Part shown: in pieces, positions 5,954 to 63,673 of the stretch
Numbering within the stretch: position 1 is the stretch's first letter
How the letters are laid out: each line of letters begins with the position of its first letter
Virus record (IMG/VR): IMGVR_UViG_2639762987_000002
Direction: 5' to 3' (one strand)
DNA length: 64,000 bases
From: a virus
Lineage: Duplodnaviria; Heunggongvirae; Uroviricota; Caudoviricetes
Position numbers and translations under genes: made by a program
Notes under the pieces: generated by a model
What the model was told of the DNA's origin: nothing
Database searches by the model: none
Seen by the model: the letters and a program-made list of their open reading frames with translations, nothing else

Positions 5954-6046
5954 TGGTAGAAAAAAATATTTATATCGGTAAAAATAAGTAGGTACTTACT
6001 TAATGGTGGGCAAGGATAGCCCACCAAATCAAGGAGCATATTCAAC

Positions 6047-9000
6047 ATGTGGTACAGGGAAGGTACTATCACATTTACACAGGGCAGCAATACTCTGGTT
6101 GGGGCAGGTACAGCCTGGAACGTAACAGCTAATGGTGTGTTGCCGGGGATGATCGTCATTGGCCCCGACAATAAGCTGTATGAGATCAAGCGCGTAACCA
6201 GTGATACGAACATTGTTCTCTCAGAACCTTATACCGGCGAAACTCAGTCTGAAGTTCCGTGCCGAATCATTACGACCTATGAAGGCGACTTAACACAGTT
6301 TAGCGCGCGCTTTACAGCACTAATGTCGCGTATGTCGGCTGATTCCAAGTCCATGCGCAGTTGGTTGACTGCTCTGGATGAGGTGACAATCGAGCGTGAA
6401 GACGGTACAGAAGTGACCGTTAAGCCGCTAATGCAGATCGTCAACGAGCACAACGAAAACGTTGAGTGGTATAAAAATAACACTGACGCGATTGATGCTG
6501 CTGGCGACAAAGCTCGTGAGGCGGCGGCCAGTGCTGCCGCAGCAGCAAAAAGCGCCAATGCCGCTGGAGAAAAAGCCTCTCAAGCGTCTCAAAGTGCATC
6601 CGCTGCGGCATCCTCACAAAGTGCCGCAAGTGCGAGTGCAACTGCTGCGAAAAAATCTGAAACGAATGCTGCAGCGTCACAAAAATCTGCAGCCACTTCT
6701 GCATCCACCGCGACCACGAAGGCGTCAGAAGCTGCCACCTCAGCCCGGGATGCGGCGGCCTCAAAAGAGGCAGCAAAATCATCAGAAACGAGCGCAGCCT
6801 CGAGCGCCAGTAATGCCGCTTCCTCGGCAACGGCGGCTGGAAATTCCGCGAAGGCGGCAAAAACGTCCGAGACGAACGCCAGGTCTTCTGAAACGGCAGC
6901 GGGACAGAGCGCCTCGGCTGCGGCAGGCTCAAAAACAGCGGCTGCGTCGTCTGCCAGTGCCGCGTCAACAAGTGCCGGGCAGGCCTCAGCCAGTGCCACC
7001 GCCGCCGGAAAATCGGCAGAAAGTGCCGCATCGTCTGCTTCAACGGCCACAACGAAGGCTGGCGAAGCCACTGAACAGGCCAGCGCAGCAGCGAGGTCTG
7101 CTTCCGCAGCGAAGACATCCGAAACGAACGCGAAAGCGTCGGAAACCCGTGCAGAATCCTCAAAAACGGCAGCCGCATCGTCCGCCAGTTCGGCAGCGTC
7201 ATCGGCATCATCTGCGTCTGCTTCAAAAGATGAGGCGACCAGACAGGCGTCAGCAGCGAAGGGCAGCGCCACGACGGCATCCACGAAAGCAACAGAGGCG
7301 GCAGGCAGTGCGACGGCTGCATCTCAGAGCAAAACTGCTGCCGAATCTGCTGCGACTCGTGCAGAAGCTGCCGCTGATCGTGCTGAAGAGATTGCCGGTG
7401 CAGTTGCGATGGAAGACGCAAGCCTTACAACTAAAGGTGTTGTGAAACTTAGCAGTGCTGTCGATAGCACCAGTGAATCGCTGGCTGCAACGCCAAAGGC
7501 AGTTAAAACTGTTAAAGATAGTTCAGTTCAAAAAACTGGCGACACAATGGGAGGGCAGTTAAAAATCGGCACGATAAATGCTCTTCGAATATTCAACCAA
7601 GCCTTTGGCCTTATTTTTAGGCGTTCCGAAGATTATATTCATCTTATCCCGACTAATGAAGGGGAGGGAGAAAATGGAGACATCGGTTCATTAAGACCAT
7701 TCTCTATAAACTTAAGATCAGGGTTGGTGTCCATCGGTAATGGACTAAAAGTTGGTGGTAGTGTTACTGGTAATTTGACCGGAAACGCAGATACTGCGAC
7801 CAAGATCAAGACAGCACGTAAGATTGGGGGCGTGGCATTTGATGGATCGGCAGATATCAACTTGCCTGGAGTCAACGCTACCGGTAATCAAAACACTACA
7901 GGTAATGCTGCGACCGCCACGAAACTTCAGGCAGCCAGAACGATTAACGGTGTGTCATTTGATGGTAGTGCAAATATCACATTGACCCCTTCAAATATTG
8001 GGGCGTTGGCATTAACTGGAGGGACTCTTTCAGGTGGTTTAACTGCTGCTGGTGAGATTATTTCAAAGTCAGCAAATGGTCTGCGTATTGCCTATGGCAA
8101 CTATGGATTCTTTATCCGAAATGATGGCTCAAATACATATTTTATGTTGACAGATTCGGGTAACAGTCTTGGTACGTACAATAGCTTAAGGCCGTTTATA
8201 ATTAGTAACTCTACTGGCAATGTTACAATTGCAACTAAATTAAACGCGAGTAGTGGTATCACTGGATCTTTATCGGGTAATGCAAGCACAGCAACCAAAT
8301 TGCAGACAGCAAGAACCATCGGTGGTGTTAGCTTCGATGGCACTGCGAATATTAATTTGCCTGGTGTTAATGCTGCCGGTAATCAGAACACTACCGGTAA
8401 CGCGGCCACAGCGACCAAGTTGCAAACAGCTAGAACTATTAACGGGGTGTCGTTTAACGGCTCTGCGAATATTTCAATACCAACAATTACGTCCAGAGGG
8501 CGCGTTACTGCGCTCACCGGTACAACACAAGGTGCTGCGACTGGATTGCAGATGTACGAGGCATATAACAATGGCTACCCTTCGTCTTACGGGAATGTGC
8601 TTCATCTTAAGGGCGCAACGGCCGTTGGTGAAGGTGAGTTGTTCATAGGTTGGAGCGGTACAAGTGGTGCTCATGCACCTGTACATGTACGTTCGCGACG
8701 AGATACGGATACATCCAGTTGGTCTGAATGGGCGCAAGTTTATACGTCCAAAGACTCAATTCCAGGTGTCAATGCCACCGGTAATCAGAACACTACTGGC
8801 AACGCAGCCTCTGCAACGAAGTTGCAGACAGCCAGAACAATTGGAGGTGTGTCGTTTAATGGCACCGCCAATATTAACTTGCCGGGTGTTAATATAGCGG
8901 GTAATCAGAATACGACTGGTAACGCAGCTTCAGCCACGAAGTTACAAACGGCTCGTACTATCGGTGGTGTTAGTTTTAACGGCACAGCCAATATTAACTT

Positions 9001-9571
9001 ACCTGGTGTGAATACGACCGGTAATCAGAACACTACTGGTAATGCTGCAACCGCCACAAAATTGCAGACAGCAAGGAAAATTGCTGGTGTGGCGTTTGAT
9101 GGCTCTGCCGATATAACTTTGACTGCGGCTAACCTTAATGCTTATACGAAAACAGAGGTAACAAACCTTCTCAGTTCCTATGTGAAGAGTAGTTCTCTTC
9201 CAAGCATGACTGTGCGAACTTCCTCTGTTTCTGGTGGGGATATGGGCATGAGTTTGTCCACATTCATTAGCCACCTTAAATCAAATGGGGCATTTAGCAA
9301 AAGTTATTGGATTGGCTTTGGCGATGCTATGGGATTCAATGCTGGCAGTATCAACAATATAACGGGATTTGGTGCTGTAGAATTAGCAGAATCTATAATC
9401 GAAGTTTTTAATCTACCTAACGGTGATTATACAATTCGTTTAACAACGTCACATAAAGCTGACTACGGTGGAGTGACAAACGCAATCCTCGTTTATCACT
9501 ACCGTAGTAATAGAAGTCCGTCAGGTCAATGGCTGAAATTTGCCGGTACTGTTGGGGCAACAAGCAACTGA
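6047..9571 (+). CDS. Tail fibre protein (side-tail-fibre type)
   Basis: 1174 aa after RBS AAGGAG; long Ala/Ser-rich tract; repeated ~40-aa units with GNAATATKLQTARTIGGVSF typical of phage tail-fibre repeats; follows J-like gene. Confidence 0.75.
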   Translation: MWYREGTITFTQGSNTLVGAGTAWNVTANGVLPGMIVIGPDNKLYEIKRVTSDTNIVLSEPYTGETQSEVPCRIITTYEGDLTQFSARFTALMSRMSADSKSMRSWLTALDEVTIEREDGTEVTVKPLMQIVNEHNENVEWYKNNTDAIDAAGDKAREAAASAAAAAKSANAAGEKASQASQSASAAASSQSAASASATAAKKSETNAAASQKSAATSASTATTKASEAATSARDAAASKEAAKSSETSAASSASNAASSATAAGNSAKAAKTSETNARSSETAAGQSASAAAGSKTAAASSASAASTSAGQASASATAAGKSAESAASSASTATTKAGEATEQASAAARSASAAKTSETNAKASETRAESSKTAAASSASSAASSASSASASKDEATRQASAAKGSATTASTKATEAAGSATAASQSKTAAESAATRAEAAADRAEEIAGAVAMEDASLTTKGVVKLSSAVDSTSESLAATPKAVKTVKDSSVQKTGDTMGGQLKIGTINALRIFNQAFGLIFRRSEDYIHLIPTNEGEGENGDIGSLRPFSINLRSGLVSIGNGLKVGGSVTGNLTGNADTATKIKTARKIGGVAFDGSADINLPGVNATGNQNTTGNAATATKLQAARTINGVSFDGSANITLTPSNIGALALTGGTLSGGLTAAGEIISKSANGLRIAYGNYGFFIRNDGSNTYFMLTDSGNSLGTYNSLRPFIISNSTGNVTIATKLNASSGITGSLSGNASTATKLQTARTIGGVSFDGTANINLPGVNAAGNQNTTGNAATATKLQTARTINGVSFNGSANISIPTITSRGRVTALTGTTQGAATGLQMYEAYNNGYPSSYGNVLHLKGATAVGEGELFIGWSGTSGAHAPVHVRSRRDTDTSSWSEWAQVYTSKDSIPGVNATGNQNTTGNAASATKLQTARTIGGVSFNGTANINLPGVNIAGNQNTTGNAASATKLQTARTIGGVSFNGTANINLPGVNTTGNQNTTGNAATATKLQTARKIAGVAFDGSADITLTAANLNAYTKTEVTNLLSSYVKSSSLPSMTVRTSSVSGGDMGMSLSTFISHLKSNGAFSKSYWIGFGDAMGFNAGSINNITGFGAVELAESIIEVFNLPNGDYTIRLTTSHKADYGGVTNAILVYHYRSNRSPSGQWLKFAGTVGATSN
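6480..7390 (+). repeat. Low-complexity Ala/Ser/Thr-rich coding tract in tail fibre gene
   Basis: Protein region of ~300 aa dominated by A, S, T, K, E; generates spurious long ORFs in other frames and on the minus strand. Confidence 0.8.
7780..9125 (+). repeat. Tail-fibre 120-nt (40-aa) repeats
   Basis: Three in-phase consecutive copies at 8761-8880, 8881-9000, 9001-9120 plus diverged copies near 7861 and 8341 and partial copies. Confidence 0.8.
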
Positions 9572-9609
9572 TTTAGACATTATTTCTAATAAGGATAATT
9601 TATAAGATG

Positions 9610-9645
9610 GTTGTGAGGTCGATAAATATGGCCTCACAACCGCAG
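9610..9645 (+). terminator. Possible hairpin terminator after tail fibre gene
   Basis: 10-bp inverted repeat GGTTGTGAGG...CCTCACAACC; no clear T-run. Confidence 0.35.
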
Positions 9646-9661
9646 TTATAAGGATATATTT

Positions 9662-10534: not shown

Positions 10535-10765
10535 ATGAAAAGATTATTTCTAACAATAGCTGTTGTTCTCTCTCTTACTGGCTGTCAGAAATTGCCGACA
10601 CCCATATGTTATGGTGAGGCTATCATTGGTGGACAGGAGACAGTCATACCTATATATGCTGTTAAAAAGGTTAACGGCTATACCTTATACAAAGCGGGTA
10701 GCATCTATAACTGGCGATGGGTTGGAGTAGGTGCTTTCTCATCAGTGCGTTGCAATGCTGAATGA
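10535..10765 (+). CDS. Small lipoprotein, candidate receptor-blocking / superinfection-exclusion protein
   Basis: 76 aa; signal peptide MKRLFLTIAVVLSLTGC with lipobox LTGC; lies directly downstream of tail fibre genes. Confidence 0.5.
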   Translation: MKRLFLTIAVVLSLTGCQKLPTPICYGEAIIGGQETVIPIYAVKKVNGYTLYKAGSIYNWRWVGVGAFSSVRCNAE

Positions 10766-10846
10766 TAAGTAAGTACACACCTACAACAAAAGGGTGAAAT
10801 GTGATATAAATCCGCCATCCCGATTTGACTTTTCATGGAGGAAAAC

Positions 10847-11876: not shown

Positions 11877-11877
11877 T

Positions 11878-15647: not shown

Positions 15648-15765
15648 TATTGCATCTCTTTGCTACTGACTAATGCGTTCTATTTTACACATAAGTTTTT
15701 AATCAATTTAACAGGCTCAAAGTGTAGAGCTTCTGGGCGTCTAAGACGACAAGTTATGCCTGTTT

Positions 15766-15822
15766 CTGTATATATAAATAATAAGTAACTTATTAAATAT
15801 ATACGGAAGCAGGTCTTTTAAA
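15766..15822. promoter_or_regulatory. AT-rich element with TATAAATA core flanked by imperfect inverted repeats (copy A)
   Basis: CTGTATATATAAATAA...TATACGGAAG(C)AGG; second copy at 61957-62015; lies in divergent intergenic region. Confidence 0.4.
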
Positions 15823-15929
15823 AGACACCACCAGAACAACTCCCTTCCGTTTCCACTTCCAAAAACTGCCACCAGTCGCTATCATCCGCTCATTGTGATA
15901 AGTAAGTAACTACCTACCAGGTGAGCCAC

Positions 15930-19317: not shown

Positions 19318-19392
19318 CAATCACCTTTAAAATAAGTAGATGATTACTTATCTTTCTGTGAGAATACTTTCATCTGTTAGCTAGGAGTTGGT

Positions 19393-20169: not shown

Positions 20170-20224
20170 TCTCTCCGCGCGTCGTTTTTTACGCAAATAA
20201 CGATAGGTAAGTACAAGATTATTT

Positions 20225-20707
20225 ATGGCGGTAGTTGTGAAAGCTGACTTGTCAAAAATCCCCTCTATTTCAGGAAATAATGGTTATTCACTTCGTTGTG
20301 AGGAAGTAAAGATAAACGGTGAGTCGGCATATTGCAGCTACTCCGTTTGCCAGCACACCATTCTTGCCTTCAAAGAAAACCGTCTTCCTCGAACTTCATT
20401 CCAGTCGTGCGCAACCGCTATCAAAGCAGGCAAATGCAAGGCGTTAAAAATGATGGTTGAAGAGATTCGTAAAGGAGAATCTCTGTATTTCGAAGATATG
20501 ACCGTGCTCATTAAGGAGGTTGAAGAACGGAATAAACAAGCCAGAACTTTAAAACGAAAACGTGACAGTGTAACGATTAATGGCATGGTTAAGAAGAGCA
20601 CCACATCACAAACAGCGATCACTGACGTGTATGCGGCGTTGCTTGAAGAAACAACAAAAGAAACACATGAGCAAATCGATCAACATATGGAGGTAAAACA
20701 ACAATGA
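20225..20707 (+). CDS. Hypothetical protein
   Basis: 160 aa; several Cys; overlaps ligase start. Confidence 0.45.
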   Translation: MAVVVKADLSKIPSISGNNGYSLRCEEVKINGESAYCSYSVCQHTILAFKENRLPRTSFQSCATAIKAGKCKALKMMVEEIRKGESLYFEDMTVLIKEVEERNKQARTLKRKRDSVTINGMVKKSTTSQTAITDVYAALLEETTKETHEQIDQHMEVKQQ

Positions 20708-22401: not shown

Positions 22402-22550
22402 TTCCATACATCTCATTAGCTTTTATGGGTGGCTTCCTTATCGGCTTCGGCATCTGTCGTGATTTAATTAAGCAGGAACTTAAAACCAAAACACTGTGCA
22501 TCGGAAAGCGTGTGTATCGGGTAGTTCATGAAACAAAGGTGAAAAAATGA
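22398..22550 (+). CDS. Small membrane protein, paralog family member B
   Basis: 50 aa, below ORF-track cutoff; ATGA overlaps at both ends; TM helix then GKRVYRVVHET motif paralogous to 22023-22202. Confidence 0.4.
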   Translation: MIPYISLAFMGGFLIGFGICRDLIKQELKTKTLCIGKRVYRVVHETKVKK

Positions 22551-22837: not shown

Positions 22838-23039
22838 AAACATATTGATAAGTATTTACTTACTTATCTTTTGTGTATAAGATGACTTTGTTTTCGTTGA
22901 GACGCGACTGTTTGAACTTAAATACAAGTGCAAACGAAGAAGTCTATCTGGCAGTAGCCTAATAAGCCAAACACCAGCGAGGTCAGTTTCCAGCCTCGTT
23001 ACCGAAATGGGACACACTGAGCGAGTGTGATTGCAGAAC

Positions 23040-23615: not shown

Positions 23616-23690
23616 GATGGTGTAGCTCAGCGGTAGAGCAGTTGGCTGTTAACCAACTGGTCGGTGGTTCGAATCCACCCACCATCGCCA
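23616..23690 (+). tRNA. tRNA-Asn (anticodon GTT)
   Basis: Manual fold: acceptor GATGGTG/CACCATC, anticodon loop CTGTTAA, T-loop TTCGAAT, 3' CCA. Confidence 0.75.
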
Positions 23691-23695
23691 ATTTA

Positions 23696-23782
23696 GGGGA
23701 GTTAGTCCGTAGAGGTAGCGGTGTAGACTGTAAATCTACTGTCATGGCGACTCGGGTGGTTCGACTCCATCACTCCCCACCA
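23696..23782 (+). tRNA. tRNA-Tyr (anticodon GTA), long variable arm
   Basis: 87 nt; acceptor GGGGAGT/ACTCCCC, anticodon loop CTGTAAA, T-loop TTCGACT, 3' CCA. Confidence 0.65.
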
Positions 23783-23786
23783 AATT

Positions 23787-23862
23787 GCCGGTTTAGCTCA
23801 GTTGGTAGAGCGCCTGCCTTGTAAGCAGGATGTCAGCGGTTCGAGTCCGTTAACCGGCACCA
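23787..23862 (+). tRNA. tRNA-Thr (anticodon TGT)
   Basis: 76 nt; acceptor GCCGGTT/AACCGGC, D-loop AGTTGGTAGA, anticodon loop CTTGTAA, T-loop TTCGAGT, 3' CCA. Confidence 0.8.
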
Positions 23863-24079
23863 ACACAACAGGAAAGAGCATTGAAAACCGCCGAGACTGC
23901 CCTGTTTTAAGCGTAAGTCCGTGCAAACGTCATACAGTGCTCTTTTCGTTGTGGTTGATGCGCAGACTGATGCGCGGAAAGAAATGCCCCAGCGACACAC
24001 GAGGCGAGTTCACACACTGCAATGCAGTCAGTAGCCGGGGTCGCTAAGCCGGAGATCAGTACCGGTAACCACAACAATT

Positions 24080-24166
24080 GGAGAGTAGGGAGCATGGTGC
24101 TCAAGCGGTCTTGAAAACCGTCCCATTGTGCAAACGATGATGGTTCGATTCCATTACTCTCCGCCA
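24080..24166 (+). tRNA. tRNA-Ser (anticodon TGA), long variable arm
   Basis: 87 nt; acceptor GGAGAGT/ACTCTCC, anticodon loop CTTGAAA, T-loop TTCGATT, 3' CCA. Confidence 0.65.
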
Positions 24167-24358: not shown

Positions 24359-25621
24359 TTACTTTGCATAGTCGCCCAATTTTAATATTTCGCGCTTATA
24401 TTCATTAACCATGCTACTGGATTCAGTATAAATTCGATTTAAAAGATTATCGTTATCTTTATTTTCATTTATCTTAATTAGTGCTAATTTATATTCATAG
24501 TCATCAAATGCCACAATTAAATGGTGGCCTGGGATTATATCTTCGTCACTCTTAAAGTATATATCTTCAAGTATGTAATCTAGTTGATTAGATTTTCTTT
24601 TCTCGATGTAATCTTCAGCCATAGCTATTACATCATTCCTGTCATTTAACCTGTTTTTTTCGGAAGGCACATCTTCGTAATGTTGCACGATTGAACAACC
24701 AATAAGGCGTGGGATGTAAACGTCAAAATGAGTAACTCTATCATTCGCGGTTTTAAGTAGTTCCTCAAAGTAGTTTCTTACATGTAAAGGCAACTTCTCA
24801 AAGTAATCATTAATTATAGGAGAACAAGGAGTTTTATAATTCATAAGAACCGACGGTACGAGCTTTGGGTGTCGAAACATCCAGTCCCTTTTAACGTCCG
24901 ATGGAACATAATAACTTTTAATGATATTATCAAAATAATTTATCATTCGAGATTTGAATATTTTGTTGAATCTAAGGTTTATGAATGTATCCAGATAAGG
25001 CATATTTGAATAAGCATCATCAAAAAATATTTCTTCATTGAAGAAATCATATTTATTTAATAAATAAAACAGTTTTTCCGAATTAATATGTTCACAATAA
25101 TCGATTTTTAATCCAAAGATAGCAATGATCAACTTCATCTGAGGTGGGATTTTAAAAATTAATTGTGACACATACGCTCTTTTTTCCTTGAGACATTCCC
25201 CATCAATATAAAATGAACCATCCACATACTCAAATATATTAATAATATGCTTCACATACTGTATTACCTCATGCTGTCTTACCAATGGATAATATAGTCT
25301 ATGTAACTCATCGCTGTTTAAATTAATTTTGTGTTTATCGATAATTTGTTTTGCAAGAAGACATAACTCATCATGTTGATTTAATAAGGAATCAAACCAT
25401 TGTTTAAATGCACTCTTTCGCATTTCGAACAATGATTCAGTTGTTAATTGAAGGGCTGAAAAAGCCGCTTTTGCACTTTTTCTCGCTTCGTAGGCATTCC
25501 ATGCTGTTGCTATAAAAGCAAATGCTGTAGCCAATGTTCCAACAGTTTGACCATTTAAAACAACCCAATCCCAAAAAATGACGGTGAGCAGTAGTATAAT
25601 AATGAAAATTAAAAAAGGCAT
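24359..25621 (-). CDS. AT-rich membrane-anchored protein of unknown function (candidate exclusion/defence gene)
   Basis: 420 aa on minus strand; two N-terminal TM helices; strongly AT-rich by eye relative to flanks; own terminator. Confidence 0.6.
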   Translation of the reverse strand: MPFLIFIIILLLTVIFWDWVVLNGQTVGTLATAFAFIATAWNAYEARKSAKAAFSALQLTTESLFEMRKSAFKQWFDSLLNQHDELCLLAKQIIDKHKINLNSDELHRLYYPLVRQHEVIQYVKHIINIFEYVDGSFYIDGECLKEKRAYVSQLIFKIPPQMKLIIAIFGLKIDYCEHINSEKLFYLLNKYDFFNEEIFFDDAYSNMPYLDTFINLRFNKIFKSRMINYFDNIIKSYYVPSDVKRDWMFRHPKLVPSVLMNYKTPCSPIINDYFEKLPLHVRNYFEELLKTANDRVTHFDVYIPRLIGCSIVQHYEDVPSEKNRLNDRNDVIAMAEDYIEKRKSNQLDYILEDIYFKSDEDIIPGHHLIVAFDDYEYKLALIKINENKDNDNLLNRIYTESSSMVNEYKREILKLGDYAK

Positions 25622-25713
25622 GTATGTATTTCACTCTACTAACTATAAAATATTAGGCTAATGTTAACCAAACAATGCCTTAATTAATAGATTGATCGAG
25701 GCTTTAATAGCTT

Positions 25714-25753
25714 TATAATGCAGACCGCAAAGATAGGTATGCACATACCTATC
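25714..25753 (+). promoter_or_regulatory. Promoter with TATAAT -10 followed by perfect palindrome GATAGGTATG-ca-CATACCTATC
   Basis: TATAAT at 25714-25719; palindrome 25732-25753 belongs to the dispersed GATA(A/G)GTA...TAC(C/T)TATC family. Confidence 0.5.
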
Positions 25754-25795
25754 TTCTTTGTAAGTAAAGTTACATATCAATTCTACGAGGTCACA

Positions 25796-26251: not shown

Positions 26252-27355
26252 ATGAAAAATAGCTTTGACAGAGCACGCGCTGCGGAGAACACCTCAAAAG
26301 AGGCGATAGAGTATCTCGAAAGAGCATCTCAAATGCAGGCCGTTATGATCTCGCAGGTTAGCAATGACATGAGATTCTCGGACGCATTCATGTTATTCAC
26401 TCGCTTATCTCTGCTGATAACCAGACGTCGGCCAGAGATCGCTGTTCATTGTATTTTGATACATGTTTTGCCGCACATTGCCGATGTAAAAGTAAGTGAC
26501 ATTAATAGGTTCATGGTGAACCAACTGGTCAACCCACTAATACTGGATGGCAAAATTGTTATGGGCCGCCGCGTTTTCTCTCTGATGAAGCAGTTCCTTA
26601 GCTGGTGCGCCTTCCAGGGGATGATAGACGTGTCACCGTTAAACGATATGTCACTAAACAAAGTTGCCGGTGGCGCAAAGCCCACACCTCGCGAGCGGAA
26701 GCTGACCGACGCAGAGGTATGGGTGTTCTGGAATATATGGGACTACTTCAATGTGTGCGCTGGTACAAAATGGGCGGCCAGGCTGTGTCTTGTATCCGCA
26801 AGACGACCTGACGAAGTACTGCGGGCTAAAAAAAGTGAGTTCAATCTTAAGCGTGGGGTTTGGAATCAAGGCAAGAGGAACAAATCTGCCCGTGAGCATT
26901 CGCTGCCTTTAAGCACATTAATGCGCACATGTATTGAAGAGTTGTTCGAATACGGTAAAGGCAGCCAGTGGCTCGTGCCTTCGAATAAAAAAATCGGGAA
27001 AGACCTTCCTATGTCTAAAGTGGCAATAGCCCAGGCATTACGTCGTATCCTGGAACGACCAGAACTGATGGAGCTTGAGCCATTTACACCCCGAGACTTG
27101 CGCCGTACTGCGCGTAGTTACTTCCCAGCATTAGGCATAAGCCAGGAGGTATCACGTAAAATCATGAACCACAGTCTTGAGGGGATAGATCGAGTCTACG
27201 ACCGGCACGATTATATGGACGAGATGCGAGACGCCTTAGAAAGTTTCTCGACGTACATCGCATCAATCGTAGAGCAACCGGATTTAGACGAAATTGACCA
27301 CAAATTTAAGGGAGATCGTCTATCAACAGAGCTTATTCGTGTAAATTTTTCATAG
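26252..27355 (+). CDS. Tyrosine site-specific recombinase (integrase or resolution recombinase)
   Basis: 367 aa; C-terminal region with ARRPDEVLR, LRRTARSY, NHSLEG...YDRHDY resembling tyrosine recombinase boxes. Confidence 0.6.
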   Translation: MKNSFDRARAAENTSKEAIEYLERASQMQAVMISQVSNDMRFSDAFMLFTRLSLLITRRRPEIAVHCILIHVLPHIADVKVSDINRFMVNQLVNPLILDGKIVMGRRVFSLMKQFLSWCAFQGMIDVSPLNDMSLNKVAGGAKPTPRERKLTDAEVWVFWNIWDYFNVCAGTKWAARLCLVSARRPDEVLRAKKSEFNLKRGVWNQGKRNKSAREHSLPLSTLMRTCIEELFEYGKGSQWLVPSNKKIGKDLPMSKVAIAQALRRILERPELMELEPFTPRDLRRTARSYFPALGISQEVSRKIMNHSLEGIDRVYDRHDYMDEMRDALESFSTYIASIVEQPDLDEIDHKFKGDRLSTELIRVNFS

Positions 27356-27736
27356 AGACTTTATGGCCTCAACAACCTTTTGTGATGCGCCTTTCTCTTT
27401 ACCGAATCGCTCGTTATATGCAGCAAGAACCTGTTTTTCGTCCTCGTTAAGAGGAGCAGTGCCTTCTTTGTATAAAAATGCTGCGAGTTCGGGTTGGCGT
27501 TCTTCCAGCACCATCATCATAAGACGACTTGGCTCAATACCCAGTGCCAGCGCCAGCGGACGAACCTTATCGATAGGCAAAGGAATTTTGCCGCTTTTAA
27601 TTAAAGAAAGGTTGTTGGCGTTTTTATACCCAATTGTTTTGGCTATCTGGGCCTGGCTCATAGGTGAGGATTCAATCAACCCTGCGATAAAAGCAGCGTA
27701 GCGACTTTCTATAAATTCAATCTTGTTATCAGACAT
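27350..27736 (-). CDS. XRE-family helix-turn-helix transcriptional regulator
   Basis: 128 aa on minus strand; HTH segment SQAQIAKTIGYKNANNLSLIKSG; divergent from downstream operon. Confidence 0.6.
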   Translation of the reverse strand: MSDNKIEFIESRYAAFIAGLIESSPMSQAQIAKTIGYKNANNLSLIKSGKIPLPIDKVRPLALALGIEPSRLMMMVLEERQPELAAFLYKEGTAPLNEDEKQVLAAYNERFGKEKGASQKVVEAIKSL

Positions 27737-27767: not shown

Positions 27768-27781
27768 GGTAAGTGCTTACC
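27768..27781. promoter_or_regulatory. Operator-like palindrome GGTAAGTGCTTACC in divergent promoter region of the XRE regulator
   Basis: Perfect palindrome; same core as the site at 51759-51779. Confidence 0.45.
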
Positions 27782-27987: not shown

Positions 27988-28200
27988 ATGAACACCACTA
28001 TTTCCAGCCTAATCGCTCTTGAGATCGGACACGTACAGAAATTAGCTGATGAGTGTGTAGCTGACATCCTCACCGATCTACCGAATGAGCAGATTCAGGT
28101 TGGTGTGAATGACACAACTGGCTTTATATTCGAACTTAACAACAAACGCTTCACGCTTCTCAATACCGGCTCCGAGTCTTTAGCCGTCAGAATCTGTTAA
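27988..28200 (+). CDS. Hypothetical small protein
   Basis: 70 aa; first plus-strand ORF after divergent region; followed by hairpin 28214-28248. Confidence 0.4.
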   Translation: MNTTISSLIALEIGHVQKLADECVADILTDLPNEQIQVGVNDTTGFIFELNNKRFTLLNTGSESLAVRIC

Positions 28201-30407: not shown

Positions 30408-30502
30408 ACAAAACAGCCTTAACGATAAGTAACCACTTACGATAGATAATGATATATTTATATAAGAAGTTGAACGCTCATTAGAAAACAAAGGAAAAAC
30501 GC

Positions 30503-35994: not shown

Positions 35995-36111
35995 TTTTTG
36001 ATAGATAATAAGTAAGTACTGATCTATCATTTAACAGCTCGAAAGAGCCACGAATGAACGAAAGCCCAACGCGCATAGCGCCATCGGCCAAATCACAACA
36101 AGGAGAAACAC

Positions 36112-39487: not shown

Positions 39488-39493
39488 ACACAA

Positions 39494-39516
39494 GGCGTCC
39501 ACAGGACGCCTTTTTT
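39494..39516 (+). terminator. Rho-independent terminator
   Basis: GGCGTCC-ACA-GGACGCC followed by TTTTTT. Confidence 0.8.
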
Positions 39517-39521: not shown

Positions 39522-39550
39522 TTGAAAATATATAAGTACTTACTTATTAT
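39522..39550 (+). promoter_or_regulatory. Sigma70-like promoter with palindrome ATAAGTACTTACTTAT in the spacer
   Basis: TTGAAA (39522-39527), 17-nt spacer, TATTAT (39545-39550); spacer carries the dispersed palindrome family. Confidence 0.5.
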
Positions 39551-43219: not shown

Positions 43220-43274
43220 TCGCCTATTCATAACTAACAAAATAAGTAAACACTAACCACAAAAGGAAAAACAC

Positions 43275-43550
43275 ATGAGAGTTTTAGTTCGAATCGTTAC
43301 CAGCACTGTCTATGACGTGTTTCCGCTTTTTATGGTCAAAGCCGATGGCCTTAACGACGAAGAAACTGACGCACTGATCCAGCGTATTCTCGTTGAATAT
43401 ACAGGTCATGACGCTGATTCAGTGATGGTTGATGATGATGGTGTTTGTTGGCATAACGGCAACTGTTGGTACGTAGAAGAGACTCAACAAATCAGTGATG
43501 AAGATGCCGCACATCTTGAGCGTATTTTAAGCATCAGCACTTTTGAGTGA
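43275..43550 (+). CDS. Hypothetical acidic small protein
   Basis: 91 aa; start context AAAAGGAAAAACACATG. Confidence 0.5.
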   Translation: MRVLVRIVTSTVYDVFPLFMVKADGLNDEETDALIQRILVEYTGHDADSVMVDDDGVCWHNGNCWYVEETQQISDEDAAHLERILSISTFE

Positions 43551-43765
43551 GTTTACAGTAAAGTTTATATAAGTTAGTATCTACCTATCATGAAGATTTT
43601 TATTGAATACTTGTTACTCATCGTTTCAATAGCTTTTGTCATCGACTGCATTTTCACTGGTGTCATTCGTAAAGTCTTTTCCCCGGTGCACGACGTAGTC
43701 ATAAACGCTTTGGCTATCGTGCTCGTATTTAATTCAGCATTTGATGTAATCAAAGAGGTGGCAGC

Positions 43766-44360: not shown

Positions 44361-44893
44361 ACCGCTGACAGCATACACAATCAACTACCGCTGATAGCAT
44401 ATCGAGAGTCTATCTCACCGCTCACAGCATACTTTACTCGATTTTTTACCGCTGACAGCATACTTAAGAAATTGCATGAATAATGTGTCCCGGTATGGGT
44501 ATAACCAGAACAAAATTACCGCTGGCAGCATACGAATGTCTGACATATACCATTAATTACCGCTGATAGCATATCCAAACAAAAATTCCTCAATAAAACA
44601 CCGCTGACAGCATACGTTCTATCAGGGAGTAGCAGGCAATAAATGCCTTTCACTACAAGCAATCAGCGCAATAGCAATAGAATGTTAGTGAGCGCAAACC
44701 TATATGGAATGCACTCTTCGAGGTTAGTAACCACTGGGGAGGTATGACAGAGCATTGAGTGGTGATAGATGATTTACCGCTCACAGCATACGTTCATCTC
44801 ACTATACCGCTGGTAGCATATCTTTAACCGTTCACAGCATACTTTTCAGAAAAATAGCCGCTGATAGCATACATTTCACCGCTGACAGCATAT
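44361..44893 (+). repeat. Iteron array downstream of rep gene (12 direct repeats, consensus ACCGCTGACAGCATAC)
   Basis: Copies begin at 44361, 44387, 44417, 44448, 44518, 44559, 44600, 44776, 44806, 44827, 44857, 44878; all same orientation, irregular spacing 21-70 bp. Confidence 0.85.
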
Positions 44894-45987
44894 CAAAGCA
44901 GTTTGAGACTATTGGAAAGGATCTCAATCATCTTGATATTTTCAGGCGTCAAATTCTGCGAAAGTTCGGTTATCTTGTTGATAATGTTCTGTTTGGCATC
45001 AATTTCCCCAGCTTTCTCATCTGGTTTTTTGGGTTCGATGTCTTCAGGTTTTGGCGGTGCGACTTTGAGTTTTGGATTGCGGCTGTGAATCTGGATATAG
45101 ATCGACCGCCCACGCTTAATCTCGCTGTATTCGAGATAGCCCAAATCTTGGAGAGCTTTTAAGCCGTTACGTATAGTCTGATTCTGCGAGCTGACATTCC
45201 TGCTACTCAAATTGAGTCGCGCACGCAATCGAGCAAGCGATACCGGCGCAGGCTTGGTTGGAAGACTTTCGATGAAGGTGTACAGAGCCTGTGCTGTTTC
45301 TTTGCGTGGTAGCTTATTGATAACCTTTAACTGCAAAAGAACCTTATGGTCAAAGCGATATAGCTCGGCCAGCTTCGGTTCTGCATAGAACACCACCGTA
45401 TCTTTCTGCTCGTTGTAGTCCACGCTATTGATGAGGTGCACCATCAGAAGCGAGATCTTGTTAGAGCCGTCGACGTTCTTTTCTTCATACGTTCTCTGGA
45501 AAGACAGAGTTGTACGCATGATCTTCAAAAGACTGTTTGTAAGCCGGTCGCGGAGTGTTTTGCGGATCTGTGACGATGGATAGCCACAAAACTTAGCAAA
45601 TTTCGTGATGCTTAACTCGACACGACCGTTAGGTTCGCCGTATTCTGCCAGCGAACGCACAACGCCCACCCACGTTTTGAAATCATGATCCATGTCGAGA
45701 CGAGGACCGGTTATCTTGATATCGGAATAGCCTTCAGAACGGGCTACTTCGAGCTGGACAAGCTCCTTTGAAGCATCGATCTCATTTGGCTTGTTACGTT
45801 TACTGTATTTTGTTCCCTTAAGCGTGGGGACGAACAACCCCAGTCGCATCAACGCAATTGGTTGGACTGTATTGTTGCTATTAGGGACAAGTTCCCCTGT
45901 GTACAATTCAAGGGAACCTTCTTCAAAGTTGTCGATGTTATCTTCTACTTCTTTGTTATTTTTACCTTTTTTATTTTTTGTGGACAT
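44893..45987 (-). CDS. repA: Iteron-binding plasmid-type replication initiator (RepA-like)
   Basis: Minus strand, 364 aa from ATG at 45987 with RBS AAAGG (ORF track extends to 46107 across iterons); flanked on both sides by iterons. Confidence 0.6.
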   Translation of the reverse strand: MSTKNKKGKNNKEVEDNIDNFEEGSLELYTGELVPNSNNTVQPIALMRLGLFVPTLKGTKYSKRNKPNEIDASKELVQLEVARSEGYSDIKITGPRLDMDHDFKTWVGVVRSLAEYGEPNGRVELSITKFAKFCGYPSSQIRKTLRDRLTNSLLKIMRTTLSFQRTYEEKNVDGSNKISLLMVHLINSVDYNEQKDTVVFYAEPKLAELYRFDHKVLLQLKVINKLPRKETAQALYTFIESLPTKPAPVSLARLRARLNLSSRNVSSQNQTIRNGLKALQDLGYLEYSEIKRGRSIYIQIHSRNPKLKVAPPKPEDIEPKKPDEKAGEIDAKQNIINKITELSQNLTPENIKMIEILSNSLKLL

Positions 45988-46007
45988 GTGGACACCTTTG
46001 TCATTCA

Positions 46008-46109
46008 ACCGCTGACAGCATACTTGATTTGCCGCTGACAGAATACCAAAAACAGTTGGCAGCATACGGTGAACCGCTGACAGACTATCAATTACCGCTG
46101 ACAGCATAC
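46008..46109 (+). repeat. Origin-proximal iterons upstream of rep gene (5 copies, about 21-bp periodicity)
   Basis: Copies at 46008, 46031, 46052 (degenerate), 46073, 46094. Confidence 0.8.
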
Positions 46110-46149
46110 ATGAACATGACTTCAGACCAGGCGTGGCGCGGCTTACAGC

Positions 46150-46222
46150 GATCGGGGATCTTATTTGATCTATATAAGGATCTGTCTATGGATCTCTTTA
46201 TTAGGATCTATCCTGTGGATAT
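46150..46222. promoter_or_regulatory. Origin-like region: six clustered GATC sites and a DnaA-box-like TGTGGATAT
   Basis: GATC at 46150, 46157, 46168, 46180, 46191, 46205, four inside (A/T)GGATCT heptamers; TGTGGATAT at 46214-46222 is 8/9 to the DnaA box. Confidence 0.6.
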
Positions 46223-46308
46223 GTGAATAATTAAAACAGGCATTTACTACCTTCGGCGCACCTGGTGGGTTATCGTTGCCTCGGCTAACAATCACAGAAA
46301 AATGACAT

Positions 46309-46953: not shown

Positions 46954-47207
46954 CCCTCCAGATCGTATATTGGCGTAGATAGAATCTACGCCTCCTCAAA
47001 ATAGCTCTCATAGCGTTCTACAGTGATTCTGTCTTATTTTTAGTCATATAGACAAGCAAACTTGCGCCACAATAAATAGGTATATACTTACTTATAAATT
47101 TTGTATATTAAGGCGCTCGTTTCATTCCTAACATACCGTTATGCATAGTTGTTTACCTCATCATTGCTCTTAGAATTTGTATCAAAATAACCACAAAGGA
47201 AAAATAC

Positions 47208-51751: not shown

Positions 51752-51785
51752 TTTCATTGATAGGTAAGTGCTTATCTATTAACAT

Positions 51786-51815
51786 GGGCCACTATATTTA
51801 GTGGCCCTCTTTATT
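51786..51815 (+). terminator. Hairpin terminator
   Basis: GGGCCACT-atattt-AGTGGCCC followed by TCTTTATTT. Confidence 0.6.
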
Positions 51816-55466: not shown

Positions 55467-56336
55467 ATGAACTTTACCAAACTGACTGACCACCTGAAAC
55501 TTGCCACCGATCGACTCATTGGATTTAAGCCAGAACCATATGAATTGCATGAAGGCCATGGTGTAGCCACTGAAAGTATTTACAAGATGGTCGATCAGTT
55601 TCATGAACTCTTCCAGCATCCGAGACGCGTTATGCCGACACCAGAGCTGCTTCGTCTCCGTGCAAGCCTGATTCATGAAGAAGCTGTAGTGGAAGGTATT
55701 CCAGCTGCAATGAATGGGGATATTGAGCAACTGCTGGATGCAATGGCCGACTTTTTATACGTTGGTGTTGGTACGATGGTCGCCATCAAAGGTGGTATTT
55801 CTACCGGCATGACCTATTACACGCAGGAACAGAGCATTGATCGCTTTATGCAGACAATTTTTGTGCCTGGTAACACTGTTTTCGATGATATGGCAATGCC
55901 ATTTCAGGAAGCTCGTGAGGCGTCATGTATGCTCGAAGAGCTGGCAGATAAACTTGAGAAGAAGACTGTTAAGGATTCTGAGCTGATTCAGGAACTGCGC
56001 CGTGTAATGAACAAAATCTATGTGGCGTGCATGATGACTTATCGACTGGCTGATTTTCTCGGTATCAATGTCGTCGAGCTGGTTGGCGAAATTCATCGGT
56101 CCAACATGACAAAATTATGGCCTGCAGATGCCGAAGAGCGTCGCCATGCTGTGGCCAACTGCAAATACGACTCTTCTGACCTGGGATTTCGCCATGCTGA
56201 TGGCACCGATAAGATGATCGGTTTTCGAATTTCCGATGGAAAGATTCTGAAGTCTCCAACCTATAGTGATGTCGATTTATCCTCCTTTGTTGAGCAAGCT
56301 AAAGCCTCAGCAATGTACGGAATGATCAAAAAATAA
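55467..56336 (+). CDS. Possible MazG-like nucleoside triphosphate pyrophosphohydrolase
   Basis: 289 aa; helical EExxE/D-rich segment LIHEEAVVEGIPAAMNGDIEQLLDAMADFLYV; assignment tentative. Confidence 0.4.
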   Translation: MNFTKLTDHLKLATDRLIGFKPEPYELHEGHGVATESIYKMVDQFHELFQHPRRVMPTPELLRLRASLIHEEAVVEGIPAAMNGDIEQLLDAMADFLYVGVGTMVAIKGGISTGMTYYTQEQSIDRFMQTIFVPGNTVFDDMAMPFQEAREASCMLEELADKLEKKTVKDSELIQELRRVMNKIYVACMMTYRLADFLGINVVELVGEIHRSNMTKLWPADAEERRHAVANCKYDSSDLGFRHADGTDKMIGFRISDGKILKSPTYSDVDLSSFVEQAKASAMYGMIKK

Positions 56337-56405
56337 TTGTAGGTAGTTATCTATCTGTGTATATTGCGCTGGCGCGTTAAATTTCTGAAACAACTATTCG
56401 TTTTT

Positions 56406-56431: not shown

Positions 56432-56507
56432 TCTGTCTGGTCTTGTTCTCTCAATAAATGTAAACTCACGCAATGAATAAGTGGTTACTTATCTTTGTGA
56501 GGTTTTT

Positions 56508-59624: not shown

Positions 59625-59633
59625 GGAGTTCTG

Positions 59634-60191: not shown

Positions 60192-60195
60192 AACA

Positions 60196-60233
60196 AAAGC
60201 CTACTTTAAAAAGTTTAAAGTAGGCTTTCTTTT
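60196..60233 (+). terminator. Rho-independent terminator
   Basis: AAAGCCTACTTT-loop-AAAGTAGGCTTT followed by CTTTT. Confidence 0.8.
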
Positions 60234-60349
60234 AAAGAACAGTAGCCTTTCAATCATTTCCTGCCTGTATTTAATACTTTTCCGCCTGATAGGTTTAGTC
60301 AAAATGCAGCCATCGAAACGCAAATGTAACCAAACAGAAGGAGACTTAC

Positions 60350-61159: not shown

Positions 61160-61342
61160 CGTTCCCCTACTTAAAATAAAGCCCATAGAGAGCTTTATAG
61201 TACTGGGTAAGCCAATCACATACCCAGCACCACAAAAACGCGCCAGAGAGCTTCTCGTTTGCATTTCTGGCGCGTTTTATTTGATTGCCAGACATAAAAT
61301 CAAATGCAAAAATAGGTATATACTTACCTATCGAGAAAGAAG

Positions 61343-61936: not shown

Positions 61937-61956
61937 TTTGTTCTGGTGTCTGTAAT

Positions 61957-62015
61957 TAGCCTGCTTCTGTATATATAAATAACTACATATTAATTATTAA
62001 TATACGGAAGAAGGC
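61957..62015. promoter_or_regulatory. AT-rich element with TATAAATA core flanked by imperfect inverted repeats (copy B)
   Basis: CTGTATATATAAATAA...TATACGGAAGAAGG; paralogous to 15766-15822. Confidence 0.4.
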
Positions 62016-62121
62016 TGTTTTGTATCAGAGACTCCAGACCTGAACATCACTACAGAATCCACTAGAACCCCTTCCCAGACGCTTTAAAATCGATTTTATG
62101 AACCACTTTAAGGAAACCAAC

Positions 62122-62349
62122 ATGTCATACCCGACTAATGTCGTTGCGCTCGTAGAGAGCGATTTTCTGGCCCAGGCTCGTGAAATGATGAAAGATCGTG
62201 AGCAGGCTTTCAACTTGTACGAATGGGCAATTAAGTGCTTGCATCTTGGCGAGCATCGCGAACTTGTTGAACAGCTTTTAGGTGAGTTGATCAATGAGGT
62301 GTTTGCCTTGAATGTTCAACTACATGGTAGAGAAAATAATCAATCATAA
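62122..62349 (+). CDS. Hypothetical small protein
   Basis: 75 aa from ATG 62122 with RBS AAGGAAA (ORF track begins 62098). Confidence 0.45.
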   Translation: MSYPTNVVALVESDFLAQAREMMKDREQAFNLYEWAIKCLHLGEHRELVEQLLGELINEVFALNVQLHGRENNQS

Positions 62350-62399
62350 TGATAGATAAGTACAAACTATTCATAAAGTGAATTGTAAGTGCTAAGATC

Positions 62400-62850
62400 T
62401 GATAGTTTCCAGTCGTAGACTGGAGACTCGACCTGATGGGTGGGGGTAAGCGTCACTGGCGTCAGGTTTAAAAAAGCTCACTACCAGCGTAGAACTGGTG
62501 CCGTTTAGGTGTCGGGGAAGGGGGAACCAAAGTGAGCAGAGACAAGGGTCACTTTATGATTGTCGAGTCTGGGGTGTTTCGAGAGGTTGAATCCAGTACT
62601 CCCCTTCATAAAGTGTGGGAAGATCTCGGTTCTGGGGTGCTGTCATCCATAACTTCCCAAGTCTAAGCTGGCAGTAGACTTAGACCATAACTTTTCAGGT
62701 TATGAAACGACCAGGTTGGTGAGAGATTTTTATACTCACCTCCCTGGGAGAGTATTACCTGAAAAGACAACCTCTCACTTCGTTCGAGGTGAACTTCACT
62801 CACTTCGTTCGTTCAGTTCAGGTTTATAAAAACCTGTTCTGGGAAGTAAT
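62400..62850 (+). ncRNA. Candidate structured RNA or regulatory leader in an ORF-free region
   Basis: No ORF; complementary AGACTCGAC (62424-62432) and GTCGAGTCT (62562-62570); repeated TCTGGGGTG and CACTTCGTTCG motifs. Confidence 0.25.
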
Positions 62851-62872
62851 TTGTTTATTTTAATAATTATTA

Positions 62873-62897
62873 ACACGCACGCGTGTGCGCACGCGCG
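62873..62897. other. 25-nt strictly alternating purine-pyrimidine tract (Z-DNA-prone)
   Basis: ACACGCACGCGTGTGCGCACGCGCG containing palindromes CACGCGTG and GTGCGCAC; upstream of RNase H start. Confidence 0.6.
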
Positions 62898-62934
62898 AGG
62901 AAAAATCGGCGCGGCGCTTGATTCAGGAGTTTAT

Positions 62935-63525
62935 ATGACGACGAAGACACCAGCCCGATCGCAAGCAAAAACTCGCAAAAAAGCCAAAAACAAAAATTCC
63001 CCCCGCACCAATCCCACAACGCCTGTCGTAGAGTTCAATCCCCAGCTTAAAACCGTGAAAATCTTTAGTGATGGCTCTTGCCTTAAAAATCCGGGTGGCC
63101 CGGGCGGTTACGGTATCGTTCTCCAGTATCGTGGTGAGGAACGCGAGTTCTCAGATGGTTTTCATAGCACCACCAATAACCGCATGGAGATGATGGGGGC
63201 ACTTATCGGGCTGGAGCGTTTGAAATATCCATGCAACGTTATTTTGCACTCTGATAGCCAGTATCTGAAAAACGGCATGACACAGTGGATGAAATGGTGG
63301 AAACGCAATGGATGGATGACTTCTGACAAAAAACCGGTAAAGAATGTTGATCTGTGGAAGCGTCTGGATGAGGCCGCAAGTCGACATAATGTTCGCTGGA
63401 AGTGGGTTAAAGGCCACGCCGGGCATCGTGAGAATGAAATATGCGATCGACTCGCGAAGATCGCAGCTTTTTCAGCAGCAGATATGCCTCACAAGAAAGA
63501 TATTGGTTTTGTTTATAATAAGTAG
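62935..63525 (+). CDS. rnhA: Ribonuclease HI with basic N-terminal extension
   Basis: ATG 62935 after RBS CAGGAG (ORF track begins 62851); [48 protein letters not shown] closely match bacterial RNase HI from memory. Confidence 0.9.
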
Positions 63526-63673
63526 TAAGTAAGTGTTTACCTATCATTTTAAATCATGTATCTTATCGGCGTCAGGATGACAATGTGTCGGTAAGACACA
63601 GTTCCAGGATGGAACGAGAAAGGCGGCTGGCAATCGCCAGCCGCAACTCTTTCTGACACTGGATGGGGTCCAC

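Follow-up and report, generated by a model that had tools for sequence, protein, structure and literature searches.

Why does one palindrome recur in front of so many genes of a single phage genome? The question is raised by the IMG/VR virus record IMGVR_UViG_2639762987_000002 (Caudoviricetes), of which a stretch of 64,000 nucleotides (the window) was analyzed. An initial annotation, made from the sequence alone, had reported a dispersed family of operator-like palindromes with half-sites of the type GATA(A/G)GTA at about 19 intergenic positions; all 19 coordinates carry a copy or a recognizable variant. There are strong grounds for the view that a transcription regulator encoded by the phage binds these sites and that they define the lytic transcription units. 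The regulator is probably an XRE-type prophage repressor, and the palindromes would be its operators in a phage-plasmid of the SSU5/pHCM2 type.

The window shares 98% identity over most of its length with Escherichia phage Cyrano (pLF82, OV696614), 99.6% identity with E. coli plasmid pAVS0968-B, and ~77% identity within the alignable parts with Salmonella phage SSU5. Nearly all of its genes lie on the plus strand. According to the annotation of its relatives, they comprise tail and lysis genes, ParA, helicase, primase, ligase, a tRNA cluster, glutaredoxin, an integrase, a 128-aa “transcriptional regulator/putative repressor”, a CobT-like protein, an AAA ATPase, DnaE, UvsY-, gp32-, and UvsX-like recombination genes, RepA with iterons, SbcCD, ribonucleotide reductase (RNR), ThyX, and others. 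Because of these identities and this gene content, the window can be assigned to the non-structural two-thirds of an SSU5/pHCM2-type phage-plasmid.

Phage-plasmids of this type, some of which carry genes for extended-spectrum beta-lactamases, are frequent in clinical E. coli, Klebsiella, Salmonella Typhi (pHCM2), Enterobacter, and Yersinia pestis (pMT1). How they maintain lysogeny is essentially undescribed; the sole statement on SSU5-type immunity found in the literature is the designation of CYRAN_45 of Cyrano as a “putative repressor” (PMC9928086). In the full-text literature searched, neither the motif nor a repressor regulon of the SSU5 family was described, and an earlier description is possible; the regulon is apparently new, and the principle that underlies it is already known.

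Enrichment and anatomy of the palindrome

The word GATARGTA occurs 19 times on the two strands of the window, compared with 2.58 expected copies, a count that was reached in none of 100 shuffles. Fifteen copies are located in the 8.1 kb of intergenic DNA, where 0.53 are expected and 1000 dinucleotide shuffles produced a maximum of 4. An unbiased analysis of 7-mers in the intergenic DNA placed ATAAGTA, TAAGTAA, ATAGGTA, and GTAAGTA among the most strongly enriched words, and the only word family stronger than those of the palindrome was the RepA iteron. A 22-bp palindromic position weight matrix (PWM), iterated from ten seeds, identified 21 sites in the window, 19 of them intergenic, although intergenic DNA makes up only 12.7% of the sequence. 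With a site defined by a PWM score of at least 13, sites are present in 18 of the 43 intergenic gaps, compared with 0.16 (maximum 2) after shuffling of the same gaps; the enrichment over shuffled controls on which the initial annotation had made its claim depend is borne out. Two sites had escaped that annotation, a strong one at 43568-43589 and a weak second one at 25759-25778. Four exact half-sites in coding DNA (13296, 13568, 30019, and the PWM match at 29093) are probably due to chance, and the PWM matches at 15773 and 61974 represent another palindrome family.

The ideal site comprises 22 bp, RATARGTAAGT-ACTTACYTATY (hyphen at the center), and is built of inverted TARGTA/TACYTA hexamers. 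These hexamers are spaced by -2, +2, or +6 bp only; all other spacings in the range of -2 to 14 are absent (~0 expected). The arms are frequently duplicated in a 4-bp phase (TAAGTAAGTA), which is why the sites had seemed to be of mixed sizes: tandem half-sites in this phase explain the apparent classes of 18 and 22 bp, which were therefore discarded. The site at 25732 has a spacing of 6 only, and the site in front of the tRNA cluster is conserved with a spacing of 2. The single fixed spacing expected of a rigid dimer was not found. The two arms score about equally (9.5 versus 8.6), so the sites are symmetric, and exact half-sites are evenly divided between the strands (9 plus, 10 minus).

Distribution and conservation among phage-plasmids

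In the complete genome of Cyrano, the PWM detected 28 sites (0.33 in shuffles), 26 of which are intergenic. They extend over 2-85 kb: the series starts at the terminase/portal junction and continues through the blocks for head, tail, lysis, replication, recombination, and nucleotide metabolism. The region of 85-108 kb has one real site only, located upstream of parB; it harbors several accessory genes that are expressed in the lysogen, and most genes in this region are near background in that state. Several sites occupy gaps of 26-75 bp inside operons; some overlap a stop codon, and some precede a terminator.

Sites at orthologous positions are retained while their flanks diverge, both in pHCM2 of S. 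Typhi and in a Klebsiella plasmid, as well as in further loci from IMG/VR and genome sequences (~75% DNA identity). Sites exceed the null expectation also in the relatives from Y. pestis (pMT1), Kluyvera, Buttiauxella, Serratia, and Photorhabdus. The operator in front of the tRNA cluster is invariant in ~60 relatives, and so is a TATAAG hexamer located 7 bp downstream. Outside the 22 bp, no conserved positions were detected in the enteric elements.

Two lineages have variant half-sites. In one enteric lineage (L098), TATGTA is in excess (10 copies versus 2.5 expected), with GTATGTA-TT-TACATAC at the tRNA site and TATGTATGTA at the gp32 site as examples. The AB-group phage-plasmids of Acinetobacter, whose replication module is syntenic and whose XRE homolog shares 48% identity, carry ~16 intergenic copies of (A/G)ATCAGTCAGT-ACTGACTATACT (z >20). 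Their architecture is the same (AGTnAGT-ACTnACT), with the half-site TCAGTA in place of TAAGTA. In A. baumannii plasmid NZ_CP035046 (L010), the ~16 intergenic copies (ATCAGTCAGTACTGACTATACT; 1722-48343) are situated at a fixed distance from a TATACT -10-like hexamer, and three variant copies lie between the gene of the XRE homolog and its divergent neighbor.

An XRE-fold protein as candidate repressor

Among the recognizable DNA-binding regulators of the neighborhood, only the 128-aa protein encoded at 27350-27736 on the minus strand, a homolog of CYRAN_45, shows conservation and synteny in both the SSU5 and the AB group. Its match to the Pfam family HTH_19 is weak (E=7.8e-4, below Pfam's cut-off), and it also matches the PHROG family of transcriptional regulators phrog_8 (1.3e-11). 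A profile comparison with PDB returned a LexA-like helix-turn-helix (HTH), an “immunity repressor”, and 434 Cro. The AlphaFold (AF2) model (pLDDT, predicted local distance difference test, 79.5) was matched by Foldseek to C-proteins (C.BclI, C.AhdI), HigA, SinR, Stl, lambda cI, and 434 repressor. According to the model, the protein has the five-helix HTH fold of the XRE/Cro-CI type with a short helical tail. It is the best candidate for the protein that binds the palindromes.

The putative promoter of the gene (P_xre; minus strand, TTTACA-16-TAATAT, 27810-27783) carries the copy that the initial annotation had placed in the divergent region of the XRE gene: GGTAAGTGCTTACC (27768-27781) is located just downstream of the hexamers, at the predicted start point, and seven enteric lineages retain the hexamers as well as the palindrome. 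Because a conserved site coincides with the predicted start point of P_xre, the sequence suggests that the XRE gene is autoregulated.

The residues predicted to determine specificity lie in the helix N39-K47. For the predicted recognition helix, all lineages with TAAGTA sites have N(A/P)N(N/I)LSLIK, whereas the lineage enriched in TATGTA has YQNQVSFIK and Acinetobacter (TCAGTA) has RPNVLSMIK. This covariation of helix and half-site is suggestive, if weak. The lineages were sampled by a scan of genome contigs, which gave 5 loci, and in IMG/VR, which returned only lineages that were already known. No complete plasmid of the lineage with YQNQVSFIK was found in PLSDB or among the complete genomes of E. 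coli. The distant XRE homologs P0070, P0071, and P0087 reside in unrelated chromosomal contexts and are of no use for the covariation. Other proteins annotated as regulators (a FljA-like protein, a UmuD-like protein, and small proteins without family assignment) are poor candidates for the binder.

The gene divergent from that of the XRE protein (27988-28200, plus strand) encodes a 70-aa homolog of CYRAN_46 (phrog_2627) and sits in the position of Cro. This position is conserved in all lineages, including Acinetobacter, and the transcript of the homolog in Cyrano rises in macrophages from log2 4.3 to 10.8 (~90-fold). The product is a candidate for a Cro-like protein or an anti-repressor.

Expression in Cyrano lysogens

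Expression was evaluated with the transcriptome (RNA-seq) data of the Cyrano lysogen in strain LF82, which cover five conditions (PMC9928086, Table 1 and S1 Table). In lysogens, the transcript of the XRE gene (CYRAN_45) is ~10-fold above the prophage background, and 81% of the first genes behind sites are near the detection floor. In LF82 grown in macrophages, where the prophage is partially induced, transcript levels jump exactly at three sites, between genes 11 and 12, 55 and 56, and 59 and 60; these sites therefore coincide with start regions. When all sites are averaged, expression does not step up. In one condition, the mean step across sites is -0.89, compared with +0.36 elsewhere (p=0.009). 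The steps are compatible with the behavior of a boundary or roadblock, although the evidence is not strong.

Repressor operator or activator element

The positions of the sites relative to promoters provide the main argument for an operator function. Among the plus-strand promoter matches in 38 kb, only two attain 10 of 12 positions, and both coincide with sites. One of them, TTGATC-16-TATAAT (25692-25719), ends 12 bp before the perfect palindrome GATAGGTATGCACATACCTATC (25732-25753; PWM score 27.5), which begins at ~+6 and is followed in tandem by the weaker second palindrome TGTAAGTAAAGTTACATATC (25759-25778). The other, TTGAAA-17-TATTAT (39522-39550), encloses AATATATAAGTACTTACTTATT (39527-39548; PWM score 26.2), which fills the spacer and the -10 element; a terminator (39492-39512) stands just before it. 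The initial annotation had described both arrangements, the palindrome behind a perfect TATAAT at 25714-25753 and the one within a 17-bp spacer, and both are as it had them.

Other sites are placed differently. The palindrome TATAAGTTAGTATCTACCTATC (43568-43589; PWM score 23.7) overlaps the -10 element of TTTACA-17-TAGTAT (43552-43580), a promoter-like sequence conserved in three lineages. A three-lineage alignment likewise shows conservation of TTCCAA-17-TAT(C/G)AT (TATCAT in the window), which places GATAAGTAAGTAACTACCTACC (15897-15918; PWM score 24.5) at ~+4 to +25; the start codon follows after 13 bp. The perfect palindrome in front of the tRNA cluster, GATAAGTATTTACTTACTTATC (22847-22868; PWM score 29.0), whose footprint extends across the ~60 relatives, and AATAAGTAGATGATTACTTATC (19331-19352; PWM score 22.5), which has orthologs, both have a conserved -10-like hexamer 7 bp downstream (TATAAG and tgTGAGAAT, respectively; TATAAG or tgTAAGAAT among orthologs) and so lie at -41 to -20. 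Two sites adjoin a ribosome-binding site or start codon: GATAGGTAAGTACAAGATTATT (20202-20223; PWM score 17.9), with a core TAAGTAAGTAC conserved in 4 lineages, is immediately 5' of the ATG at 20225, and the weak site AATAAGTAAACACTAACCACAA (43241-43262; PWM score 8.5), whose orthologs are stronger (ATAAGTAAGTACATAC), is immediately 5' of the Shine-Dalgarno sequence and ATG at 43275. At GATAAGTAACCACTTACG (30424-30441; core TAAGTA-AC-CACTTA), upstream of an AAA_5 ATPase gene, a conserved TATAAGA follows further downstream, and the distance to the conserved TATAAG varies by 11 bp between lineages.

The sites are thus found across the -35 element, in the spacer, over the -10 element, at +4 to +25, or right before a ribosome-binding site. 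A factor that touches RNA polymerase from a fixed place could not make use of such a spread, whereas a repressor that occupies promoters or early transcribed DNA could; the variable geometry therefore fits repressor operators rather than an activator site or a special promoter element. Both of these are disfavored by the range from -41 to +25 relative to -10 elements, less so for the variant in Acinetobacter.

The alternative that best survives this evidence is another phage factor that acts as an activator or temporal switch of the lytic cycle, such as the 70-aa product of 27988-28200 or an unrecognized regulator, with the palindrome replacing the -35 element in the manner of the -22 box of P1 Lpa or the MotA box of T4 middle promoters. 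It is unlikely, although several enteric sites without a good -35 element have their -10-like hexamer exactly 7 bp downstream, the TATACT of Acinetobacter is at a fixed position with no conserved -35 element, and the core AAGTACTT resembles the P1 -22 box (AAGTnACTT). The silence of the genes behind the sites in the lysogen, and the joint rise of some of them under partial induction, would suit an activator too. The spread of positions would be unusable for an activator of fixed geometry, however, and at least three sites overlap apparently self-sufficient promoters (9-10 of 12 matches). Moreover, some sites are located right before a start codon or a terminator, and a tblastn search of the window, Cyrano, and the Acinetobacter plasmid found no homolog of Lpa.

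Several observations weigh against operators of the XRE-type repressor. Most enteric sites lack a good -35 element, and promoter-like matches are not enriched overall. In Acinetobacter, TATACT always follows the palindrome at the same distance and no -35 element is conserved, which could equally mean an activator-dependent promoter. The half-site spacings of 2 and 6 bp are hard to fit with one rigid dimer. The XRE protein has neither an S24 domain nor any other sensor domain, and the SOS inducibility of Cyrano would require a separate anti-repressor. The covariation is based on three specificity classes only. In the lineage with YQNQVSF, about half of the half-sites have changed, mainly in the left arms, TAAGTA is still enriched (6 versus 2.2), and the site at P_xre is unchanged. 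The step-down in expression is significant in only one of the five conditions, and reads are obtained in the lysogen from the tRNA cluster that follows the best site (scored as CYRAN_40 in Cyrano). Binding by the XRE protein is inferred.

The claims of the initial annotation are supported in part. Its operator family is supported by palindromic symmetry, intergenic location, orthologous conservation, and variable placement over or immediately after promoter-like sequences, although the sites in very short gaps within operons resemble stoperators more than classical operators. The XRE protein as binder gains from its expression in the lysogen (PMC9928086), the site at its own predicted start point, its fold, and a partial covariation that is incomplete in the one informative enteric lineage. 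The description of the repressor as dimeric is challenged by the two genuine half-site spacings of 2 and 6 bp.

RNA-level and host-related explanations

An element that acts in the transcript, such as an intercistronic hairpin on the plus strand that serves as processing site, stabilizer, or weak terminator, is highly improbable. The neighboring genes are all on the plus strand, several copies end in TATCTTT, and expression tends to fall across the sites in one condition. The perfect copies also fold significantly (z ~-5), but three of the six sites tested fold no better than shuffled sequences, and the mismatches between the arms (50 G:T versus 47 A:C) have no strand bias and no preference for G:U pairs. 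The element therefore looks like a protein-binding site in double-stranded DNA rather than a transcript structure. Further arguments against the hairpin are the AT-rich stems without a T-tract, none of which was selected by a terminator scan, the independent choice of R or Y at position 5 of the two arms, and the location of some copies upstream of predicted start points, where they would not be transcribed. On the strength of the mismatch balance, the folding controls, and the terminator scan, an RNA hairpin or terminator was rejected.

Still less probable is a site for a host protein (a Fur-like or nucleoid-associated factor), which the GATAA...TTATC ends, presumably reminiscent of Fur-box hexamers, might suggest, or a by-product of intergenic DNA rich in stop codons, given that TAAGTAAGTAA has TAA in three frames, that (TAAG)n gives stops in all three, and that some copies overlap stop codons: the half-site differs by lineage (TAAGTA, TATGTA, TCAGTA), which is unexpected for a conserved host factor, TATGTATGTA contains no stop codon, and the inverted symmetry and quantized spacing are far beyond chance. 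A six-frame stop cassette of the (TAAG)n type was rejected because the TATGTA variant is free of stop codons and the TCAGTA variant has plus-strand stops in at most two frames.

A proposed mode of action and its relation to known systems

If the palindromes are operators of the XRE-type repressor, a single phage-encoded protein would silence the virus in its plasmid state through ~20 sites in the window (~28 per genome), which would mark the 5' boundary of nearly every lytic unit, from replication, recombination, and nucleotide metabolism to lysis, tail, and head. The XRE protein would be produced in the lysogen from its own promoter and would regulate itself through the site at the start point. 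Bound to the -35 element, the spacer, the -10 element, or +1, it would occlude the promoter; bound in a very short gap within an operon, it might act as a roadblock to read-through, as has been proposed for the stoperators of mycobacteriophage L5. The identity of the binder, its action in repression rather than activation, and the role as roadblock are the conjectural parts of this scheme.

The closest functional analogs appear to be the multi-operator immunity of P1 C1 and the stoperators of L5. P1 and the phage-plasmids studied here are both plasmid prophages of ~100 kb, and in both a single repressor is believed to control many scattered early or lytic promoters, its own among them. The record of P1 has C1 operators annotated at ref, mat, ssb, lpa, c1, coi, and others; here, too, many operators are dispersed over the prophage (28 sites over 2-85 kb of Cyrano). 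The comparison with P1 C1 drawn by the initial annotation holds for the lifestyle only. C1 operators are annotated as asymmetric, “monovalent” sites of 17 bp, whereas the sites in the window are symmetric palindromes; C1 has 283 aa, whereas the candidate binder is a small XRE-fold protein; and the late genes of P1 use separate Lpa promoters, whereas here the same motif is present also in the head and tail region. Searches of the window, Cyrano, and the Acinetobacter plasmid with tblastn found no homolog of C1 (best E 3.0) or Lpa (best E 0.6), and with nothing below E=0.6, homology to the P1 system was rejected. The late promoters of P1 share with the palindrome a short AAGT/ACTT core near the -10 element in a phage-plasmid, but the geometry of the 9-bp -22 box is fixed, whereas the enteric palindrome comprises 22 bp and ranges from -41 to +25; a fixed distance to the -10 element was found only in Acinetobacter.

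In cluster A mycobacteriophages (L5, Bxb1, TipsytheTRex), more than 20 repressor sites are located in promoters and short intergenic spaces, and operators and stoperators have been proposed to stop initiation and elongation, respectively (PMC9283540). With ~28 sites per genome, in promoters and short gaps and several of them in gaps of 26-75 bp inside operons, the distribution of the palindromes is by analogy closest to these. By contrast, the L5 sites are asymmetric 13-mers that are oriented with transcription and bound by a monomer with an HTH and a stoperator domain (PMC9283540); the sites here are symmetric without a strong bias between arms, the candidate has an HTH of the Cro/CI type, and a block of elongation is only presumed.

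The third comparison is with the Cro-CI switches of lambdoid phages, 434, and P22, and with the controller (C) proteins of restriction-modification systems, which have the XRE/Cro-CI HTH fold and palindromic operators. Inverted-repeat operators that overlap promoters are likewise present here, a small gene diverges from the repressor gene, and the promoter of the latter carries an operator. The differences are the number of operators (tens over 85 kb rather than two or three clusters), the half-sites in 4-bp-phased tandem with spacings of -2, 2, and 6, and the lack of an S24 peptidase domain. The palindrome system belongs to neither the P1 C1 nor the mycobacteriophage stoperator-repressor protein family and is a new instance of a known strategy, in which one repressor that has tens of operators keeps a large temperate phage silent across its whole genome.

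It is tempting to go further, although the proposal is tentative and rather doubtful, and to regard the family as a convergent, symmetric counterpart of the mycobacteriophage stoperators. The 85-kb lytic genome would then be silenced by a small XRE-type repressor that acts at promoters and also as a roadblock to elongation, the 4-bp-phased half-sites (TAAGTAAGTA) would allow alternative or overlapping registers with spacings of -2, 2, and 6, and the half-site (TAAGTA, TATGTA, or TCAGTA) would provide the SSU5, pMT1, and Acinetobacter AB phage-plasmids with a tunable immunity code.

Lineage-specific half-sites would allow hetero-immunity among SSU5/pHCM2-type elements to be predicted from sequence. 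An operator consensus, a map of the sites of nearly every lytic unit, and a named candidate repressor make immunity groups, induction, superinfection exclusion, and engineered derepression testable.

Remaining sites and their surroundings

The site AATAAGTAGGTACTTACTTAAT (5983-6004; PWM score 24.5) lies between a tail J-like gene and a tail-fiber gene, is followed by a hairpin, and has an ortholog at 22447 in Cyrano; GATAAGTAAGTACACACCTACA (10764-10785; PWM score 21.3) is upstream of the holin/lysis block and conserved in Klebsiella. Upstream of the gp32-like single-stranded DNA-binding protein gene, AATAAGTAAGTACTGATCTATC (36007-36028; PWM score 25.5) has orthologs and is accompanied by a promoter-like TAGATA-17-TATCAT. 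The site AATAGGTATATACTTACTTATA (47075-47096; PWM score 26.1) precedes an sbcD-like gene and has a TATATT 7 bp downstream, GATAGGTAAGTGCTTATCTATT (51759-51780; PWM score 27.8) precedes the gene for RNR alpha, and AATGAATAAGTGGTTACTTATC (56472-56493; PWM score 20.7) precedes a thyX-like gene, with the weak site TAATTGTAGGTAGTTATCTATC (PWM score 14.0) nearby at 56334-56355. Toward the end of the window are AATAGGTATATACTTACCTATC (61311-61332; PWM score 28.0), upstream of an adenine methyltransferase gene, GATAGATAAGTACAAACTATTC (62351-62372; PWM score 19.1), and AGTAAGTAAGTGTTTACCTATC (63524-63545; PWM score 23.7).

A GC-rich, terminator-like hairpin comes after, and not before, three sites, two in the window (5983-6030 and 51759-51807, with the hairpin of the latter at 51786-51807) and one in a related locus (L003, 5442-5490); each of these sites therefore has a stop codon before it and the terminator of the upstream unit behind it. 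Downstream of the best palindrome (22847), the genes for tRNA-Asn, Tyr, Thr, and Ser form a cluster (23616-24166), and the 4-5 bp just upstream of this operator (22842-22846) are hypervariable among otherwise near-identical phage-plasmids of E. coli. The site at 15897 is preceded by a block of ~60 bp (15835-15896; TTCCCTTCCGTTTCCACTTCCAAAAAC...CAGTCGCTATCAT) that is almost invariant across the lineages of E. coli, pHCM2, and Klebsiella, which are otherwise ~75% identical; as judged from the alignment, this conservation exceeds the need of a promoter alone.

Other features of the window

A 420-aa open reading frame without a Pfam match (24359-25621, minus strand) takes the place of CYRAN_41 to CYRAN_43 of Cyrano. 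No other Cyrano gene is expressed as highly in lysogens as CYRAN_43, which reaches 723 times background (PMC9928086). The region appears to be a variable accessory slot that adjoins the immunity region.

The iterons that dominate the 7-mer analysis flank repA (44893-46107, minus strand), with at least 13 copies of ACCGCTGACAGCATAC at 44361-44893 and 46008-46117. Near them, at 46160-46235, is a cluster of GGATCT/GATC repeats with a DnaA-like box (TGTGGATA). Together these elements mark the plasmid origin region. A second large palindrome, unrelated to the operator-like family, consists of CTG(C/T)TTCTGTATATA, ~20 bp of AT-rich DNA, and TATATACGGAAG(C/A)AGG. It is present in two copies in the window (15757-15812 and 61958-62012) and in three in Cyrano (31178, 78098, and 108356), and it occurs also in Klebsiella.

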